Part shown: positions 1 through 8,976 of the stretch, one piece after another
Layout: each line of letters begins with the position of its first letter
Position numbering within the stretch: position 1 is the stretch's first letter
Source of the DNA: Candidatus Heimdallarchaeota archaeon
Lineage (GTDB): Archaea > Asgardarchaeota > Heimdallarchaeia > JABLTI01
Reading direction: 5' to 3'
Length of the DNA: 11,995 nt
Assembly (NCBI GenBank): GCA_030614005.1
Contig: JAUWKS010000087.1
Span: 1 to 11,995 of the forward strand
Program-made: the position numbers and the translations under genes
Notes under the pieces: model-generated
What the model was told of the DNA's origin: nothing
Databases searched by the model: none
Seen by the model: only the letters and a program-made list of their open reading frames with translations

Positions 1-174
1 AAAGCTGCTGAAGAAGCTGCTGAAGAAGCTGTTGCAAAAGAAAGAGCTGCTGCAGAAGAAGCTGCTGCAGAAGAAGCTGCTGCAGAAGAAGCTGCTGCAG
101 AAGAAGCTGCAAAAGAGAAAGCAGCAAAAGAAGAGGAAACAACGAAAGAGAGTGAACCAAATGGTAGCAACTGA
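1..174 (+). CDS. 3' end of an unknown upstream gene (partial) with an Ala/Glu-rich low-complexity C-terminal tail
   Basis: Frame +1 is open from base 1 to TGA at 172-174 and reads KAAEEAAEEAVAKERAAAEEAAAEEAAAEEAAAEEAAKEKAAKEEETTKESEPNGSN*. The GCT/GCA/GAA codon pattern is natural in this frame. The gene overlaps the antiporter ATG (161) by 14 nt. Not in the ORF track because its start is outside the window. Confidence 0.85.
   Translation, partial: KAAEEAAEEAVAKERAAAEEAAAEEAAAEEAAAEEAAKEKAAKEEETTKESEPNGSN
4..110 (+). repeat. Coding tandem repeat: 4 perfect copies of 15-bp GCTGCTGCAGAAGAA (46-105) plus 2 copies of 12-bp GCTGCTGAAGAA (4-27)
   Basis: Read directly. Unit lengths are multiples of 3 and encode AAAEE and AAEE in frame +1. 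Confidence 0.95.
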
Positions 175-1528
175 CACAATAAATATTCTTATGTATTTAG
201 GTGTTGCTTTGCTCTCTGCAAGAATCCTTGGTGAAATTTTTGAAAGAATCAAACTTTCATCTATCCTTGGAGAATTACTAGCAGGTATGATATTCGGTGG
301 ACCATTACTAGGAATGGTTGGTGTAAATCCAGCTTTGTTTGTAGATAATGAAGTTTTGAAACAGTTTTCTCAACTTGGAATTATTATTTTGCTATTTATC
401 ATCGGTTTAGAAATCAATACTAAGAGTCTAAGAAAAACTGGAAAAAAAAGTTTAGTAATCTCACTTGTAGGTGTATTAATATCGTTAGCAGGTGGATTTC
501 TTGCAGCATTCTTAATATTTGATTATAGCCTCCCTATAGCAATATTCTTTGGTACAATGCTTACCGCGACAAGTATTGGTGTAACAGTTAGAACGTTAAG
601 CGATGTTGGTAAATTAAATACAACTGAGGGAGAAATTTTGCTATCTTCTGCAATTTTCGATGATTTTATTGTTTTATTTCTTGTCTTAATCTTTGCAAGT
701 GTTTTATTCCCTAAATCAGGAAGTGATGTATGGTATCTTAGTTTATTCCTTGGACCAGAAAATACTGTAACCTTGGCATGGTATTTCACATTATTAATTG
801 ATATTACTGTCATGGTTATATTGATTGTAGTCGTAGTTATTTTGATACCTCAACTTTTGAAATTCTTGGAGAACCGATTTAGAATTTTCTCTAATTCCTC
901 AACAAAATTCTTATCTCTAGGAATAATTTTCGGTCTACTGGTTTTGTTAGTTTTTCTTGCAGAATTTTTAGGCATTTCTGGAGTTATTATTGCTTTTCTG
1001 TTTGGTCTATCCTTACAGAAAAATAGAGTACTTGTAGGTGAAATAAAGGAAACGTTCGTCAAAATGGGTGAAGGCTTGTTTTTACCGTTGTTTTTCTTCG
1101 GTGTGGGCGCGACATTCTTATTTGATTTTTCTGTATTTGCTCCAATACTCCTCCTTGCTATTCCCATAACGATAATTTCAAAAGGTTTAGGTACGTTTGC
1201 GGGGGCATCTATGGTTAAGATTAACCCAAAAGATTCAGCAAAAATTGCTGTAGGGATGTTACCACGTGCAGAAATAGTTCTTATAATTGCGGAGATTGGA
1301 TTACTTCAAGGTATTTTTGATCAAAGTATCTTTTCAATGGCCGTGTTACTAGTATTTGTAACGATTGTGATAACGCCATTTGCTCTTCGTTTTGCTTTCC
1401 GGACACCGAAACCGCCTGTTTTGCCTGAAGTGGAATCCGATTTAGATGAATTATCAGAAGTTGAAAATGACACTAAGGAATCGTCAAACATTGAAAAGAG
1501 TGTTAAAGAATCACCAAAGGTTGGCTAG
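161..1528 (+). CDS. Cation:proton antiporter, CPA2 family (NapA/Kef-like), 455 aa
   Basis: Many hydrophobic segments. Motifs GELLAGMIFG, LLFIIGLE, TATSIGVT, SAIFDD (DD motif), ISKGLG (Lys) and GMLPRAE match CPA2/NapA signatures. Start moved from 32 to ATG 161 (MVATD...) because the track's first 43 aa are an out-of-frame reading of the upstream repeat. Ends in an acidic tail with no KTN/RCK domain. Confidence 0.92.
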   Translation: MVATDTINILMYLGVALLSARILGEIFERIKLSSILGELLAGMIFGGPLLGMVGVNPALFVDNEVLKQFSQLGIIILLFIIGLEINTKSLRKTGKKSLVISLVGVLISLAGGFLAAFLIFDYSLPIAIFFGTMLTATSIGVTVRTLSDVGKLNTTEGEILLSSAIFDDFIVLFLVLIFASVLFPKSGSDVWYLSLFLGPENTVTLAWYFTLLIDITVMVILIVVVVILIPQLLKFLENRFRIFSNSSTKFLSLGIIFGLLVLLVFLAEFLGISGVIIAFLFGLSLQKNRVLVGEIKETFVKMGEGLFLPLFFFGVGATFLFDFSVFAPILLLAIPITIISKGLGTFAGASMVKINPKDSAKIAVGMLPRAEIVLIIAEIGLLQGIFDQSIFSMAVLLVFVTIVITPFALRFAFRTPKPPVLPEVESDLDELSEVENDTKESSNIEKSVKESPKVG

Positions 1529-1710: not shown

Positions 1711-2193
1711 ATGACTATAAAAAACACTGAAACAGATTTTGCTCCAGCGGAAAGACTAACAGATGGAGATGTATATCTACAAACAATAAAGATTTTAGGA
1801 CTAAGAAACCTATTACCAATTTTACAAATTTTACCAAATATGGTTGCTATTTTGAATAAAGAACGACAAGTCATTTTTGCTAATGATGCATTTATTTCTG
1901 GAATTAGTACAGAGAAATTTGAAGATAGTTTAGGGCAAAGACCCGGAGAACTTCTAACTTGCGTTCATTCTTTAGATAATGTAAATGGTTGTGGAACTGG
2001 GAAAGAATGTAAACACTGTGGTGCTGTTCTCGTATTGTTAAAAACGCAAGAAACAGGTCGTAAGCAAGAGAGTAATGCAAAGATAACAATAAATAAGGAC
2101 GGCAAACTTGTTCCTTTAGATCTACAAATAATTGCTAGCCCAATAACAGTTGACAATGAAATATTCTATATTATTATTATCTCAGAAAATTGA
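1711..2193 (+). CDS. Stand-alone Cys-rich PAS-domain protein, 160 aa
   Basis: PAS-type start LPNMVAILNKERQVIFANDAF, then GQRPGE and C84-x-H86-x7-C94-x5-C100-x2-C103. Ungapped manual alignment to the N-terminus of 3882-5030 gives about 64/154 identities (~41%). Confidence 0.9.
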   Translation: MTIKNTETDFAPAERLTDGDVYLQTIKILGLRNLLPILQILPNMVAILNKERQVIFANDAFISGISTEKFEDSLGQRPGELLTCVHSLDNVNGCGTGKECKHCGAVLVLLKTQETGRKQESNAKITINKDGKLVPLDLQIIASPITVDNEIFYIIIISEN

Positions 2194-2228: not shown

Positions 2229-2277
2229 GATACATATTTGGACAAAGTATTAATTGGTATATCTCAATAATCTTGAT

Positions 2278-3075
2278 ATGAATGCTGAAATTTTACAAAT
2301 AGTGGCAATAACTGCTCATGCTAATGCATATTTAAACGATAAGCAAGTGTCTTTTGATAAAAACCACCCTGCAGGTTTTGGTTACAGAAATATTAAATTT
2401 GTGAGCAAAGTTGCTCAACTCGACCCAATAGCTCAGAGAGTACTTTTAGCTCAAAATCCAAATGACTGGTTTAAGTTTCTTAAAAAGAATAATGTCAGTC
2501 GTTTGTATCTAACTTATGAAATGTCTGAAAATATGTTTAATAAAGATCATCTTAAAATGACAAAAGGAAAAAAAGTAGGTCGATGGAATATTATTGCAAA
2601 GAAACAAGACAAGCACGATCTTTGGACAAATTATATTCAAGCGGAATATGGAGACGCAATAAATTATTATCATTTAATAATAAAAGATACTAGTTTTGGC
2701 ACATTAAATTTTCCAACATTGGAAACAACAAAACTCTATCTCAATGAGATTTTATCCGATTTGATTAGTTTTACAACAAAAAATAAATTGAAAAATTGGA
2801 CCAACGTTTTCCAAAACGCTCTGGGTACTTTATCCATAGAAGATCCTTCTAAACTAGTTTCTGATAATTTCTTTCCAGCTGATAGTTATAGCTTAGAAGC
2901 TAAGCAAATTTTGACCACCATTGATATTGCATGGGTTTTCGGTGGAATGGGATCATGGAATGATGTTTCGCATGTTAATGATTATGACTTGTACAGTCGT
3001 TTAACAGCAAATCTATACAATACTCTTTGTAATGCCCTTGTAGCTGTTACAAATAGTTATCTTGATGAAGACTAA
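2278..3075 (+). CDS. Conserved hypothetical protein with C-terminal WVFGGMGSWND motif (DUF6966-like from memory, unverified)
   Basis: Long open frame with normal composition. ATG 2278 (MNAEIL...) is preferred over the track's TTG 2254. The motif AWVFGGMGSWND lies near the C-terminus. Confidence 0.8.
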   Translation: MNAEILQIVAITAHANAYLNDKQVSFDKNHPAGFGYRNIKFVSKVAQLDPIAQRVLLAQNPNDWFKFLKKNNVSRLYLTYEMSENMFNKDHLKMTKGKKVGRWNIIAKKQDKHDLWTNYIQAEYGDAINYYHLIIKDTSFGTLNFPTLETTKLYLNEILSDLISFTTKNKLKNWTNVFQNALGTLSIEDPSKLVSDNFFPADSYSLEAKQILTTIDIAWVFGGMGSWNDVSHVNDYDLYSRLTANLYNTLCNALVAVTNSYLDED

Positions 3076-3881: not shown

Positions 3882-5030
3882 ATGTCCCAAAAGGATACCT
3901 ACTTTGCCTCGCCAGAAAGGCTAGACAAAGACGAAATATTACAACAATCAAATGACATTGTTAACTTAGCCTACGCTGAGAAAATTCTAAATTCTCTGCC
4001 AAATATGGTGGCTGTTGTTAATGAGCAACGACAAGTAATTTTTGCAAATAACATTTTTATTAAAATGGTAGGTTTGACTGATTTTCGAGAAGCAATAGGT
4101 CAAAGACCAGGAGAATTGATTCATTGTATCCACGCAAACGATACAAAGAACGGTTGTGGTACTGGAAGAAATTGCCGATATTGCGGAGCTTTATATGCTG
4201 TGCTTACAAGTCAAAAAAATAATTCGTCAGTAGAAAGCGAGTCTAGAATCACTACTTCTGTAGATGGGAAAATTATTGCTTTGGATTTAAATGTTAAAGC
4301 GAGCCCTTTCGGTTTTGAAGGTCAAAAATTCACTCTAGTTGTTATGGCTGATATAGGAAATATTAAGAAAAAAGAGCATCTAGAGAAAATCTTTATTCAT
4401 GATTTAATTAATTCCACTTGGTCGCTCGAATCTAGAGCTGATCTTTTTCCACTAGAAGGATTGAATAATAAACAAAAAGAACTTTTTAGCAAAATAAAAC
4501 ACCAAATTGGTTCTATTATGGAAGAAGTAGAGGTTCAAAGAGATTTATTAAGAATGGAACAAAAGGAATTAGAAACTCAATTTGCTAAGGTAAATACAAT
4601 GGAGTTAATAAATTCAACAATAAATTCAGTTACTCCTTTAGAAATTTCAAAGAATAAACATATCGTTATTGATGAAACTTATGAACAGAAAGAAATAACT
4701 ACTGATCCAAGATTACTACGACGAGTATTGATTAATCTGTTGAAAAATGCTTTAGAAGCTAGTAAAGACAATGAGACTGTTTATATTGGTTGTAAAGAAA
4801 CAAAAGATGGTATTGCATATTGGGTGAAAAATAGTTTTGTTATGAATGAAGAAATTAAAAGTCAAATATTTCAACGATCATTTTCAACTAAAGGAGTTGG
4901 TCGTGGATTGGGTACCTATAGCGTTAAAATTCTTGTTGAAGAGTATCTAAACGGAAAAGTAACTTTTGAATCATCAACATCTACAGGAACAATCTTTACT
5001 GTGACTCTTAAAACAAAGGAATTTTCTTAA
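3882..5030 (+). CDS. Cytoplasmic sensor histidine kinase with N-terminal Cys-rich PAS domain, 382 aa
   Basis: PAS with C82-x-H84-x7-C92-x5-C98-x2-C101; H-box FIHD (His173); N-box VLINLLKNALEA; F-box IFQRSFSTK; G2 box GRGLG; terminal GTIFTV. No transmembrane segment. Confidence 0.93.
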   Translation: MSQKDTYFASPERLDKDEILQQSNDIVNLAYAEKILNSLPNMVAVVNEQRQVIFANNIFIKMVGLTDFREAIGQRPGELIHCIHANDTKNGCGTGRNCRYCGALYAVLTSQKNNSSVESESRITTSVDGKIIALDLNVKASPFGFEGQKFTLVVMADIGNIKKKEHLEKIFIHDLINSTWSLESRADLFPLEGLNNKQKELFSKIKHQIGSIMEEVEVQRDLLRMEQKELETQFAKVNTMELINSTINSVTPLEISKNKHIVIDETYEQKEITTDPRLLRRVLINLLKNALEASKDNETVYIGCKETKDGIAYWVKNSFVMNEEIKSQIFQRSFSTKGVGRGLGTYSVKILVEEYLNGKVTFESSTSTGTIFTVTLKTKEFS

Positions 5031-5151: not shown

Positions 5152-6246
5152 TTATCTCCATTCAAAATACACTGATTCAATCTTTTCTGGAATTGGAACA
5201 TTGTTGATATTTATCAAATATAAACCAACTTTCTTCGGGAAAAAGATGAAATTAACTTTTTTGAATGGTTTAGAATCAAAATAGGGTATATAAGGAGTCT
5301 GTAATCCTTTCCATCCACGTTTGGTTGCTTCAAGTCCAAGAAAATTGGCTAGATCTTTAACTTCTTGATTTGTTAAGTTGTATGTATGAATAGTATCTAA
5401 CCATCCAAACTTGACGTTATGACCAAATCCTGATAAGAGAAATTCCCAGGCATTAATAAAGCCTTTAGCTTCTCCATTGTCATCTTCATAAACAACACAT
5501 AATACTTGAGGATCAGCTAATTTCCATTTTAAATCCTCGTGAACTTGCATTATGCTTATTTGATTTTTCTTTGAAAGTTCCGTAGAGAGTTCAAATATTT
5601 TATCGATATCTTCTGGTTTATAGAGTCTAACTTTGTTGGTTTTTACTTTGCCAATTCGCTCTTTTGATTTAAAGTAGAGTTTTTGTATCCAGTTTGTCTT
5701 TAGTGCTTTTGCAGCTGCATCGACATCGTAGCCTCTTACAATGAATTTATTCATTATAGCTAGTTCTATCATAGGAAGATTTAAGTTACGAGCTGCAGCA
5801 GATGATGCTCCTTTACCATGTTGACTAGCGCCTGCATCGTGAAAAAAGACAGTTGCATCATATCCCAAATTTGAAACTACTTCAAATAACTTCATTCCTA
5901 AAGCAGTTCCAAGACCTTTTCTCCGATGTTCATGATGAACAGATAACCATGCTGGTAAAGAAACGTGGTAAATTTTTCCTTCAATTAATAGGTTCTTTTG
6001 AATTGAACCAAGAAATCCAACTATTTTGTTAGTTGGTTTGTATATCACTCGAATAAAAGTTTCCTTATCTATTGCTGGTGAACCAAAGAGTAATTTGAAA
6101 TTTTCATCTCGGAGATCTGCAACTGCTCCCTCTTTTTTTGCTGCATCATCTTCTTGAAATGCACCTGTTAATAATTTCGCAAGTGTACTAATATCGGAAT
6201 CTTTAATAGTAAATTGTTCGACTAAATAATTTTCATCTAAAGACAT
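5152..6246 (-). CDS. Tandem GNAT-fold acyltransferase, N-myristoyltransferase-like, 364 aa
   Basis: GNAT motif A VHHEHRRKGLG (res 103-113), KIVGFLG strand, and a second GNAT-like lobe starting VRLYKPEDI. Collinear by eye with the eukaryotic NMT catalytic core. RBS TGAGGT lies 8 nt upstream of the ATG. Confidence 0.85.
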   Translation of the reverse strand: MSLDENYLVEQFTIKDSDISTLAKLLTGAFQEDDAAKKEGAVADLRDENFKLLFGSPAIDKETFIRVIYKPTNKIVGFLGSIQKNLLIEGKIYHVSLPAWLSVHHEHRRKGLGTALGMKLFEVVSNLGYDATVFFHDAGASQHGKGASSAAARNLNLPMIELAIMNKFIVRGYDVDAAAKALKTNWIQKLYFKSKERIGKVKTNKVRLYKPEDIDKIFELSTELSKKNQISIMQVHEDLKWKLADPQVLCVVYEDDNGEAKGFINAWEFLLSGFGHNVKFGWLDTIHTYNLTNQEVKDLANFLGLEATKRGWKGLQTPYIPYFDSKPFKKVNFIFFPKKVGLYLININNVPIPEKIESVYFEWR

Positions 6247-6254
6247 AATTGACT

Positions 6255-6260
6255 ACCTCA
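6255..6260 (-). promoter_or_regulatory. Shine-Dalgarno (TGAGGT) of the GNAT/NMT-like gene
   Basis: Minus strand reads TGAGGT-AGTCAATT-ATG. Confidence 0.65.
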
Positions 6261-6471: not shown

Positions 6472-6702
6472 TTAATTTTCAGCATCTTCTGTTCTCTCCA
6501 TTGTTAATCCTATTCGAACTGGCTCTCCCAAATAAGGAATAATACATTCGTCAAAAGGTTTGGTATATTCACAAGTTTTCCAGATACATTTCTCTATTCC
6601 ATATTGTTGAGTTTCTTTAGTCAAGAAACTTCCAAAATTTGGATACACTTCTTTTGCTTCAGGAAGAATAGCAGAAGCAATTATTTGAATAGTATTTGGC
6701 AT
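6472..6702 (-). CDS. Small hypothetical ORF or gene remnant, 76 aa
   Basis: Not overlapped by another gene and has protein-like composition. The frame stays open 17 codons upstream of the ATG (to TGA at 6754-6756) with no start codon. No recognisable family. Confidence 0.4.
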   Translation of the reverse strand: MPNTIQIIASAILPEAKEVYPNFGSFLTKETQQYGIEKCIWKTCEYTKPFDECIIPYLGEPVRIGLTMERTEDAEN

Positions 6703-6952: not shown

Positions 6953-7498
6953 ATGACAATGACAGATTTAACACCTCTAATACTATTAGGTATTTTTATT
7001 GTTGGATTCACAATTGTCTTCACTATTTCTTTGCCAACCATAAAGGGTGCTCCTTGGTTGCCTACCAAAAGAAAAAAAATTCGAAGAATGCTTGAAGTGG
7101 CAGCAGTACAACCTGGCGAGTTAGTATATGATTTAGGGTGTGGGGATGGTCGAGTATTAATTATGGCTACACGTAATTTTGGCGCTCGTTCAGTCGGTAT
7201 TGAAATTGACTTAATGCGTTTTTTATGGTGTCAATTTCTCATAACAATCTTAGGTTTGCGTAAGAAGATACGAATAATTTATGGCGATTTCTTCAAACAA
7301 GATTTGAGTGAAGCAGATGTTATATTTTGCTATCTTTTACAAAGCACGAATAATAAATTAGAAGCTAAATTATTGCGAGAAGTAGATCCTGCAACTCGAA
7401 TAGTTTCAAATACATTCATGTTTCATGGATTAGCAATAACCAAAACAGAAGGTGAATCCGGAATACTTGTGTATTCTACAGGTGTAGAAGAGAATTAA
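6953..7498 (+). CDS. Class I SAM-dependent methyltransferase with N-terminal membrane anchor, FAM173 (ATPSCKMT/ANTKMT)/aKMT-like protein-lysine methyltransferase
   Basis: N-terminal hydrophobic helix LILLGIFIVGFTIVFTISL; pre-MT motif GAPWLPT; motif I YDLGCGDGR; post-I GIEID; GDFFKQDLSEADVIFCYLL; LEAKLLREVDPATRIVSNTF. Start could be 6953 or 6959. Confidence 0.85.
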   Translation: MTMTDLTPLILLGIFIVGFTIVFTISLPTIKGAPWLPTKRKKIRRMLEVAAVQPGELVYDLGCGDGRVLIMATRNFGARSVGIEIDLMRFLWCQFLITILGLRKKIRIIYGDFFKQDLSEADVIFCYLLQSTNNKLEAKLLREVDPATRIVSNTFMFHGLAITKTEGESGILVYSTGVEEN

Positions 7499-7513
7499 TT
7501 AAGAAAATTTGTT

Positions 7514-7542
7514 AATTTAGTTTTAAAAAGAAACACTAAATT
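7514..7542. repeat. 8-13-8 inverted repeat between methyltransferase and amidohydrolase
   Basis: AATTTAGT (7514-7521) / ACTAAATT (7535-7542). Confidence 0.4.
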
Positions 7543-7584
7543 GTTAAGAGTATCTATAATTAGCTAGTGTACTTGGTGCATCCT

Positions 7585-8976
7585 TTGACTGAACTTATTA
7601 TTCGTAATGGTTTGATTGTGACAAATACAGAAAGCTATAATGCCGATATCAGAATAGTTGGCGAGAAAATCAAGGAAATTGGTCCTCAGCTCATAAAATC
7701 TGCAAAATCATCTCGAGAAGTAGATGCAAAAGGATTAACAATTTTACCTGGTGGAATAGATCCTCATGTGCACCTTTCTTTACCTGATTATGTTCCTGCA
7801 GAGCACCAATGGGCAGATAATTTTGAAAGTGGTTCTAAAGCTGCTCTTGCAGGAGGAATAACAACACTAGGTTGCATTTCTGTTCCTGACAGAGGAGAAA
7901 CTCCATTGGGTACATTGGAGCGTGAAACACAAACTATTCAACAACAAGCAATTGCAGATTTTATGATTCATCCAGTTATTTTTTCTATAACAGAAGATAT
8001 CATCAAAGAAATACCTCTTCTAAGAGAGAAAGGTTGTAATACGATTAAAATTTTCATGGTAACAGATGATTTCGATACTAATTTTCCCCTGTACGAAAAG
8101 GCTATCCGCACTGCAAATAAACATGAAATGTTAACAATGATTCATTGTGAGGATAATACAATAATAAAAAATACTTGTCAAGAACTGATTGCTGCAGGTA
8201 AAGGATCACTAAGAAATTATGCTGAAAGTAGGCCAGTTTCATCTGAAGTGCTTGCTACAGAAAAAGCAGTTGCTATTGTAGAATCAACAGGAGCGGCTAT
8301 TTATGTTGTTCATCTTTCTTCAGAAGAAGCTTTGAAAGTTTGTCAGAAAGCTCAAGCTCGGCATCTCCCTGTTCATGTTGAAGGCAGACCTATTTTTCTT
8401 TATTTAACTAAAAAAGAATATCTAAAAACTGATGGAGCATTATATGTTGTTCAACCTCCTTTGCGGGAAAAAAGCGATATAGATGCTTTATGGATGGGTA
8501 TTAACGAAGGATCAATTCACACTGTTGCAACAGATCATGCACCACACACTCGAGAACAAAAATTAAACCCAAATCTAAGTATCAATAATCTTGTACCAGG
8601 AATAAATGAATTACAAGTTATGTTACCAATTTTACATTCAAAGGGTGTTTTGACAAACAAAATTACAATAGAAAAATTCATTGAATTAACCTCAACCAAT
8701 GTTGCCAAATTATTTGGTTTATATCCAAGAAAGGGAGTAATTCAAATCGGATCGGATGCTGACTTGGTGCTCTGGGATTTAGAAGAAGAACGAATAGTAA
8801 AGAATACTGACATGTTCTCACAAGCCGGATTTTCAATATATGCTGGAGAATCATTTACTGGTTGGCCACAAATGACAATTAGGAGAGGGCAGATAGTATA
8901 TGAGAATGGAAAAATAATTGCTGAACCTGGGGCTGGGCAAATCATTCCTCGTAAAAAATCTCTACGATTGATTTAG
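7585..8976 (+). CDS. Dihydropyrimidinase/hydantoinase-family cyclic amidohydrolase (substrate uncertain)
   Basis: PGGIDPHVH, GGITT, IKIFM (carbamylated Lys), IHCED, VVHLS and TDHAPH give a complete binuclear metal ligand set. TTG 7585 (MTELIIRNG, GGTG 6 nt upstream) is preferred over the track's GTG 7567. Confidence 0.9.
   Translation: MTELIIRNGLIVTNTESYNADIRIVGEKIKEIGPQLIKSAKSSREVDAKGLTILPGGIDPHVHLSLPDYVPAEHQWADNFESGSKAALAGGITTLGCISVPDRGETPLGTLERETQTIQQQAIADFMIHPVIFSITEDIIKEIPLLREKGCNTIKIFMVTDDFDTNFPLYEKAIRTANKHEMLTMIHCEDNTIIKNTCQELIAAGKGSLRNYAESRPVSSEVLATEKAVAIVESTGAAIYVVHLSSEEALKVCQKAQARHLPVHVEGRPIFLYLTKKEYLKTDGALYVVQPPLREKSDIDALWMGINEGSIHTVATDHAPHTREQKLNPNLSINNLVPGINELQVMLPILHSKGVLTNKITIEKFIELTSTNVAKLFGLYPRKGVIQIGSDADLVLWDLEEERIVKNTDMFSQAGFSIYAGESFTGWPQMTIRRGQIVYENGKIIAEPGAGQIIPRKKSLRLI

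Follow-up and report, generated by a model that had tools for sequence, protein, structure and literature searches.

The DNA considered here, hereafter the window, is a stretch of 11,995 nucleotides from a Candidatus Heimdallarchaeota archaeon (assembly GCA_030614005.1, contig JAUWKS010000087.1; GC content of approximately 32%), whose minus strand carries a complete open reading frame (ORF) of 364 amino acids (5152..6246). Its translation, its homologues and an AlphaFold2 (AF2) model characterize the product as a probable acyltransferase with two GNAT domains in tandem, of the type of the eukaryotic N-myristoyltransferase (NMT; glycylpeptide N-tetradecanoyltransferase, EC 2.3.1.97), of which it is a full-length homologue. 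The ORF starts with ATG at 6246, is uninterrupted down to the stop codon at 5152-5154, and is preceded, 8 nt 5' of the ATG on the same strand, by a GAGGT (6255..6259), which reads as a Shine-Dalgarno-like motif and would presumably function as one. The genome record closest to the gene is that of a Candidatus Heimdallarchaeota metagenome-assembled genome (86% identity), and Arf/small-GTPase matches number 44 in the host assembly, as is typical of Asgard archaea. The original prediction, a prokaryotic tandem-GNAT enzyme collinear with NMT from end to end, was made from the letters of the window, and its central claim was borne out by both the profile and the structural alignments described below.

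All parts of the protein lie on the minus strand. The N-terminal GNAT domain (residues 1 to ~196; 5659..6246), delimited by Pfam and by alignment to the NMT N-domain, is predicted to bind the acyl-CoA. Within it, the acidic patch E32-D33-D34 (6145..6153) aligns with the acidic stretch of the NMT Ab-loop region (..YVEDDD..) and is directly followed, in the family, by an insertion of 2-5 residues. The segment P98-A99-W100-L101-S102-V103-H104 (5935..5955) aligns with the V-N-F-L-C-V-H beta-bulge of NMT, and by analogy with that enzyme, in which backbone amides of the bulge form the oxyanion hole, it would be the oxyanion-hole counterpart; in an alignment of 46 family members, P98 and V103 never vary, and conservation of W100 exceeds 90%. 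Next comes H107, also invariant, and directly after it a canonical GNAT motif A (R/Q-x-x-G-x-G/A), read from the sequence as R108-R-K-G111-L-G113 (5908..5925), which is confined to this domain and would hold the CoA pyrophosphate; at the position of G111, NMTs have R/N. A family-specific insertion (residues ~139-156; 5779..5832) with a conserved Q-H-G144, of which G144 is invariant, contains an extra helix that spans residues 143-154 in the AF2 model and falls in a gap of the NMT alignments, since NMT has no such helix. The C-terminal GNAT-like domain (residues ~205-346; 5209..5634), recognized by conservation, the AF2 model and hhalign, has no motif A and is predicted to bind the acceptor; its invariant residues are R207, D213, G273, G275, G281, W282, W312, Q316, P318, P321 and Y322. 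Finally, the tail (residues 347-364; 5155..5208), ending in Y360-F-E-W363-R364-COOH, is predicted from conservation and structural alignment by VIA-align to supply a catalytic carboxylate. Conservation is complete at R364 and at least 90% at W363 and Y360; the whole tail ...Y-F-[DE]-W-R is near-invariant, and 46/46 aligned members end at one column. Mean column identity across the 46 members is 58%, a high conservation that argues for an active enzyme. Reexamination of the sequence confirmed the positions given earlier for EDD (32-34), RRKGLG (108-113), HDAG (136-139) and Ala99 in place of the NMT Asn, as well as the extra helix after HDAG.

Identity to NMT is only 16-18%, yet the similarity lies far above what chance would give. 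Among the Pfam models matched, which were all of GNAT type (Acetyltransf_1/7/9/10, NMT and FR47), Acetyltransf_9 scored highest (35.6 bits, 1e-8), and the NMT N-domain PF01233 was matched above its cut-off (28.8 bits against 25; residues 4-115 on profile positions 19-128 of 160) and is precomputed on 56/69 homologues; a search of NCBIfam with the protein gave no match. A single-sequence phmmer search of the Protein Data Bank (PDB) returned NMTs only, the best being that of Plasmodium vivax (7e-5, residues 18-293 on 57-315), and the first 35 distinct PDB sequences retrieved with a profile of 46 family members were all NMT chains, with E-values down to 3.5e-12, ahead of the first non-NMT proteins, AAC3-I (0.018) and Eis (0.058). 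By hhalign, the family was aligned to 19 bona fide NMTs with a probability of 99.6% and an E-value of 8.7e-25 over 315 columns, from residues 8-351 onto 49-385 of a 396-residue NMT, so that beyond the last aligned column 13 residues remain in the Heimdall protein and 11 in the NMT, and with the C-terminal GNAT-like domain matched to the NMT C-domain. All blocks that had originally been aligned by eye with human NMT1 were recovered by these searches: the N-terminal, VRLY..D and VVYEDDNGE..GF blocks with P. vivax NMT (phmmer and hmmsearch), and the GW.GLQT and F..LYL.N blocks with the 19 NMTs (hhalign).

The predicted structure, modelled with high confidence (predicted local distance difference test 93.2, predicted template modelling (TM) score 0.90), points in the same direction. 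The best 50 Foldseek matches in the PDB are all NMTs (E ~1e-21, TM-score 0.75-0.80), as are 30/30 Swiss-Prot rows in the AlphaFold database, where NMT entries also head the cluster rows. Superposed on NMTs by VIA-align, the model gave Z of 31-33 and a root mean square deviation (rmsd) of 2.6-3.0 A over ~334 of 364 residues. A search independent of Foldseek ranked ScNMT first (Z 31.4, rmsd 2.9 A, 336 residues), with Cryptosporidium parvum NMT at Z 29.8, followed among non-NMT proteins by MAB_4324 (23.0), Eis (21.0), HisAT (15.4) and FemX (13.7). In profile and fold searches alike, NMT thus clearly outranked Eis, FemABX and generic tandem GNATs, a comparison set beforehand as one that could refute the prediction. 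Residues 1..364 of the model are paired with HsNMT1 150..496, AfNMT 117..492, PvNMT 65..410, CaNMT 77..451, LmNMT 50..421 and ScNMT 73..455, running to the final residue of NMT in all six species. A deltaC3 truncation of HsNMT1 served as internal control and shifted the paired range to model 1..361 on 150..493, from which it follows that the C-terminal register is exact. In the model, then, Arg364 is in register with the catalytic C-terminal residue of NMT, and the chain appears to end at the equivalent place, as had been claimed, rather than with a surface-exposed C-terminus.

The best structural matches after NMT, at Z 20-23, were MAB_4324 of Mycobacterium abscessus (PDB 7q3a), a tandem-repeat GNAT, and the entries 3ddd and 3tt2, tandem GNATs that are likewise uncharacterized; the MAB_4324 alignment ends at model residue 347, leaving the C-terminal tail unmatched, and this protein had no significant similarity in the family-profile search of PDB sequences. 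HisAT/NAT16, also a tandem GNAT with its active site between both domains, reached a Z of only 15.4, and HisAT-type proteins are defined by a beta-hairpin, not by a C-terminal insertion (PMC12219266). The same work (Nat Commun 2025) assigns to the NMT type those double GNATs that have their C-terminus in the active site, a definition with which the predicted model of the Heimdall protein agrees. It mentions in passing that NMT-type models occur in the AlphaFold database for archaea, including a Thorarchaeota entry, and for bacteria, gives these entries no family definition, distribution or function, and warns that activity is not to be assumed for such prokaryotic models (PMC12219266).

Besides sharing with NMT a single-chain tandem-GNAT architecture, the same domain order and topology and a CoA motif in the N-domain only, the family retains a set of residues that a three-group alignment of NMT, the family and other prokaryotic relatives found in all three groups: an aromatic at position 30, G77-F78, the [FW]-L-x-V-H bulge, R/Q108, K110, A/G113, R171, D/N174, R207 and D213. 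The same alignment also revealed differences, most peptide-pocket residues of NMT being replaced. Residues typical of NMT are substituted in the family at 99 (the Asn before the F-L bulge, now S/A), 102 (the Cys after it, S/A), 111 (R/N to G), 170 (the His of Y-x-H-R, I/V), 262 (the Asp of T-D-F, G), 265 (the Ser of F-x-S-F-Y, L/N) and 284 (Y/F to D), and the family pocket differs from that of NMT by S/A99, I/V170, G262, D284, H287 and Q316. The caveats raised at the outset on Ala in place of Asn, the canonical motif A, the extra helix and a possibly different acyl donor and acceptor were upheld. A signature of G111, G262, D284, Y322, K/R338, Y360, D/E362 and R364 is instead common to the prokaryotic relatives and not to NMT. 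The tail of NMT is hydrophobic, whereas the family, which is prokaryotic where NMT is eukaryotic, ends in an invariant W-R. Lastly, NMT has an N-terminal segment of ~35 residues with the motif FWxTQPV, visible in the alignment of 19 NMTs, that the Heimdall protein lacks: its first residue corresponds to HsNMT1 residue 150, ScNMT 73 and PvNMT 65, and the hhalign match starts at NMT column 43. The FWxTQPV segment is part of the myristoyl-CoA site of NMT.

In a set of 5.8 billion proteins, the core family comprises 69 clusters of full-length proteins of 360-367 amino acids, and those that are named come from Heimdall, Loki/Promethearchaeota, Thor, Gerd and 'Asgard group' archaea, with a few bacterial or Bathyarchaeia labels. 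Collections with one genome per species yielded 68 loci, mostly from Heimdallarchaeota or Promethearchaeota, a few being carried by long contigs of bacteria (Smithella, 160 kb; Leptospirales, 187 and 330 kb; Fusibacter, 1.25 Mb; Neomarinimicrobiota). Only 50/399 Asgard species genomes, from two Heimdall families and some Loki families, carry the gene, and they are unevenly spread: counted by the coded families into which the genomes are grouped, carriers amount to 11/11 and 25/30 in two families of the window's own class and to 10/14 and 2/4 in two families of other classes, and several other Asgard families are without the gene (0/135, 0/22, 0/19 and 0/12). Two to four paralogues per genome are frequent. 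The source genome itself has a second copy on another contig (C108, L002:1471-2562, plus strand; 363 amino acids, 46% identity, ending in YFDWR), flanked by a 422-residue radical-SAM protein and an ABC-transporter ATPase, the radical-SAM neighbour being present in 7 loci. Tandem duplicates were observed in some Heimdall/Promethearchaeati genomes (L007:6001-7089 and 7212-8315; G080:C78:12626-13708 and 13852-14934), and isolate CSMAG_1555 has four loci of the gene. In the closed genome of Candidatus Heimdallarchaeum aukensis (CP084166.1; L058:5989-7080), the orthologue is a pseudogene, in which a stretch equivalent to approximately residues 77-140, and thus to the GFxG strand, bulge and motif A, is scrambled and holds three in-frame stops, and the C-terminal half, including YFDWR, is intact.

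Beyond the core family, scores drop from ~1e-93 to ~1e-28, and below this gap lie ~200 representatives of ~330-410 amino acids, many of them ending in Y-x-[DE]-x-R. At E<=1e-3 there are 251 representatives, mostly ~350 amino acids long. In the wider superfamily, the chain ends in R in 44% of cases and has Y at the -4 position in 61%; neighbours in the protein atlas are overwhelmingly bacterial clusters of Acetyltransf_9/Acetyltransf_1, and true NMTs enter the family-profile search only from 5e-10. By its sequence, the Heimdall protein belongs to a large, mostly bacterial superfamily of NMT-like tandem GNATs of ~350 amino acids. Maximum-likelihood analysis of 118 sequences recovered NMT and the core family each as a monophyletic group (approximate likelihood ratio support, SH-aLRT, 99), joined with the other prokaryotic clades in a polytomy. 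When NMT and the core family were held together in a 64-row LG+G4 analysis, the log likelihood was higher than that of the free tree by 3.9, and the grouping was not rejected (approximately unbiased test, p-AU 0.62). This is weak evidence, for the stems of NMT and of the core family are long, and it was the Asgard profile that had brought in the 'other' sequences. Among 14 prokaryotic clades scored profile against profile with NMT, the core family came highest at 176, two further clades reached 173 and 167, and the rest fell within 81-160. Judged by sequence comparison, the core family is among the closest relatives of NMT, but not uniquely close to it. A different protein of ~415-455 amino acids, found in 11/135 genomes of one Asgard coded family (f20; L101-L105), has weak NMT_C matches below the cut-off (E 6e-6 to 9e-4), and Asgard archaea may thus have a second family of NMT-like tandem GNATs.

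We favor, with moderate confidence, the interpretation that the product is a soluble tandem GNAT of one chain that works as an NMT-type N-acyltransferase dependent on acyl-CoA, and that it belongs to a prokaryotic family of its own and is not isofunctional with NMT. What the analysis shows is the homology, the domain order, the predicted fold and the register of the C-terminus with that of NMT. With catalytic roles transferred from NMT, the N-terminal GNAT domain would bind acyl-CoA through R108-x-x-G111-x-G113, and the backbone amides of the W100-L101 bulge would polarize the thioester carbonyl; the C-terminal domain, devoid of motif A, would form the acceptor pocket with the invariant W282, D284, H287, W312, Q316 and Y322, and the protein's own C-terminal carboxylate, that of Arg364, threaded back into the active site, would deprotonate the acceptor amine as in NMT. 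As to the acceptor, our guess gives about an even chance to the free alpha-amine at the N-terminus of a peptide or protein, recognized differently from the way in which the Gly pocket of NMT does, and a somewhat smaller one to the amine of a small molecule. For the acyl donor, we lean slightly towards acetyl-CoA or a short acyl-CoA over C14. That the substrate is a defined one is suggested by the invariant Trp-Arg at the C-terminus and by the conserved pocket.

Several observations weigh against this interpretation. NMT_C (PF02799) had no match at E<=10 in the protein, is precomputed on none of the 69 homologues and exceeds its cut-off in 0/399 Asgard genomes; a true NMT (the first sequence of the NMT alignment) scored ~200 bits on both Pfam NMT domains (203.7 bits for PF02799). 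The residues replaced at 99, 102, 170, 262, 265 and 284 are those of Gly-peptide recognition and catalysis in NMT, so the chemistry of NMT is not simply transferable. In one subclade, M20 and M28 peptidases are neighbours of the gene (11-12 loci), with which an amino-acid or small-molecule acceptor would fit as well. The patchy spread, the bacterial copies on long contigs and the decayed copy fit an accessory metabolic enzyme better than a core system of protein modification. In addition, it is a predicted model that places the C-terminus, in an arrangement that AF2 could have taken over from NMT structures.

The strongest alternative is that the protein is a small-molecule N-acetyltransferase, acting on an amino acid, a polyamine, an aminoglycoside-like compound or another metabolite in the manner of Eis or HisAT and having only its architecture in common with NMT. 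We regard it as possible, though clearly less probable than the interpretation above. Mycobacterial Eis is also a tandem GNAT, and Acetyltransf_9, the best Pfam model of the Heimdall protein, corresponds to the Eis-type N-domain. The canonical motif A is of the acetyl-CoA type, and Eis-like chains (Z 17-21, rmsd 5-6 A) align through the final residue of the model, which falls at or near their own final residues. For Eis itself, a C-terminal carboxylate has been proposed as the catalytic base. The side chain of the invariant terminal Arg could bind a substrate carboxylate, and the mostly bacterial superfamily, a distribution resembling that left by horizontal gene transfer, the pseudogene copy and the M20 (aminoacylase-type) and M28 peptidase neighbours would all suit such an enzyme. 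However, NMT exceeds Eis by ~10 Z units and by ~10 orders of magnitude in profile E-value, Eis, with ~400 amino acids, has a third, SCP2-like C-terminal domain that is absent from this 364-residue protein of two GNAT domains, and the M20/M28 synteny is probably confined to close kin and thus weak.

A second alternative holds that the gene encodes a functional archaeal N-myristoyl (or other fatty-acyl) transferase, active for example on Asgard Arf-like GTPases, from a lineage ancestral to eukaryotic NMT. We consider it unlikely. In its favor, NMT is the nearest characterized family by every measure, the core family tops the 14 prokaryotic clades against the NMT profile, a tree that unites the two is not rejected and is even slightly better, and the Heimdall-group host, rich in Arf/small-GTPase matches, has one Arf-like GTPase (C9:70344-70859) that starts with M-G-I-L-S-K-L-F-K-K, like eukaryotic Arfs. 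Against it, NMT_C is unmatched in the protein and across the Asgard genomes, the FWxTQPV segment is missing, the pocket residues are replaced, and most Arf-like proteins of the host begin with M-S-F-L, not M-G. Published work describes Asgard Arfs as being without recognizable myristoylation signals and as binding membranes without lipidation (PMC11914678; bioRxiv 10.1101/2024.02.28.582541). Moreover, the gene is confined to a minority of Asgard genomes and missing from most of the Heimdall-class families sampled, other and mostly bacterial clades are almost as near to NMT, and in a tree that is a polytomy the long stems carry a risk of long-branch attraction. The Arf-like GTPases of the host (contigs C73, C18, C74, C26, C49, C35, C119 and C9) have as N-terminus mostly M-S-[FW]-L-x-x-[LI]-F-[RK], a striking conservation; the constant Ser2 is more in line with processing or acetylation of the N-terminus than with myristoylation of a Gly. 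The idea, put forward with the original prediction, of a precursor of protein N-acylation found no clear support: NMT_C is unmatched and FWxTQPV absent, the family occurs in 50/399 genomes, the tree is a polytomy, and G111, G262, D284, Y360, D362 and R364 are common to the mostly bacterial superfamily and not to NMT. An aminoacyl-tRNA-dependent transferase like FemABX, or a non-catalytic GNAT-fold protein, is highly improbable, because the tandem-GNAT fold in common with FemX/FemA (Z 13-14) is a far weaker match than NMT, the FemAB Pfam model is unmatched at E<=10, and the CoA motif A and the oxyanion bulge are intact and conserved in a family whose mean column identity argues for an active enzyme.

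The surroundings of the gene were uninformative: no conserved operon partner was found, and the synteny of the window is common only to the nearest genome (L003). The repeated neighbours in one subclade, which are peptidases of the M28 and M20 families, a DinB-family protein and a SIR2 deacylase, are limited to 9-12 loci, probably from closely related genomes; two co-directional neighbours of 608 and 471 amino acids, in the group L004/L006/L007, have no Pfam family. In the window, the gene is convergent with that of a PAS-histidine kinase of 382 amino acids (3882-5030, plus strand), to the N-terminal half of which a PAS-like protein of 160 amino acids (1711-2193, plus strand) is paralogous, and both have in common a Cys-rich motif, C-x-H-x(5,6)-G-C-G-T-G-x-x-C-x-x-C-G, with which the two sensor modules may sense a metal or Fe-S. 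At the edge of the window, the frame 5' of the core of a Na+/H+ exchanger (2-160, plus strand) begins with a periodic stretch rich in Lys, Leu and Gln, with KLLKK / LLQKK repeats, which could represent an N-terminal extension of low complexity or else an in-frame reading of non-coding DNA. Two further ORFs of the window, of 273 amino acids (2254-3075, plus strand) and 76 amino acids (6472-6702, minus strand), are without Pfam family, and the former is kept in the nearest genome. In a search of sequencing runs, the DNA holders among the matches listed were marine-sediment and cold-seep metagenomes, and no RNA holder was among those matches.

A 2020 review, in the words of the paper that cites it (PMC12219266), reported NMTs as limited to eukaryotes, while a bacterial origin of fatty acylation has also been argued (PMC4917890). 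In the literature searched on NMT or myristoylation in Asgard, Heimdall or Loki archaea we found no description of this family, its W-R signature, its concentration in Heimdall and Loki groups or its function. What is new is a conserved family, present mainly in Heimdall- and Loki-group archaea, with NMT as its nearest characterized relative and its C-terminus in the predicted active site. The family is one patchy branch of a mostly bacterial superfamily and not a demonstrated ancestor of NMT, and we are doubtful of the more far-reaching proposal that it is the closest surviving prokaryotic sister of NMT and already N-acylated protein N-termini, such as the amphipathic helices of Arf-like proteins. 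If that were true, N-terminal protein acylation by the NMT mechanism would be older than eukaryogenesis, and NMT would have arisen by the gain of its N-terminal myristoyl-CoA-binding segment and by the remodelling of an acceptor pocket for Gly. The origin of small-GTPase lipidation is a question that belongs to eukaryogenesis, and the family described herein makes the origin of NMT experimentally approachable.

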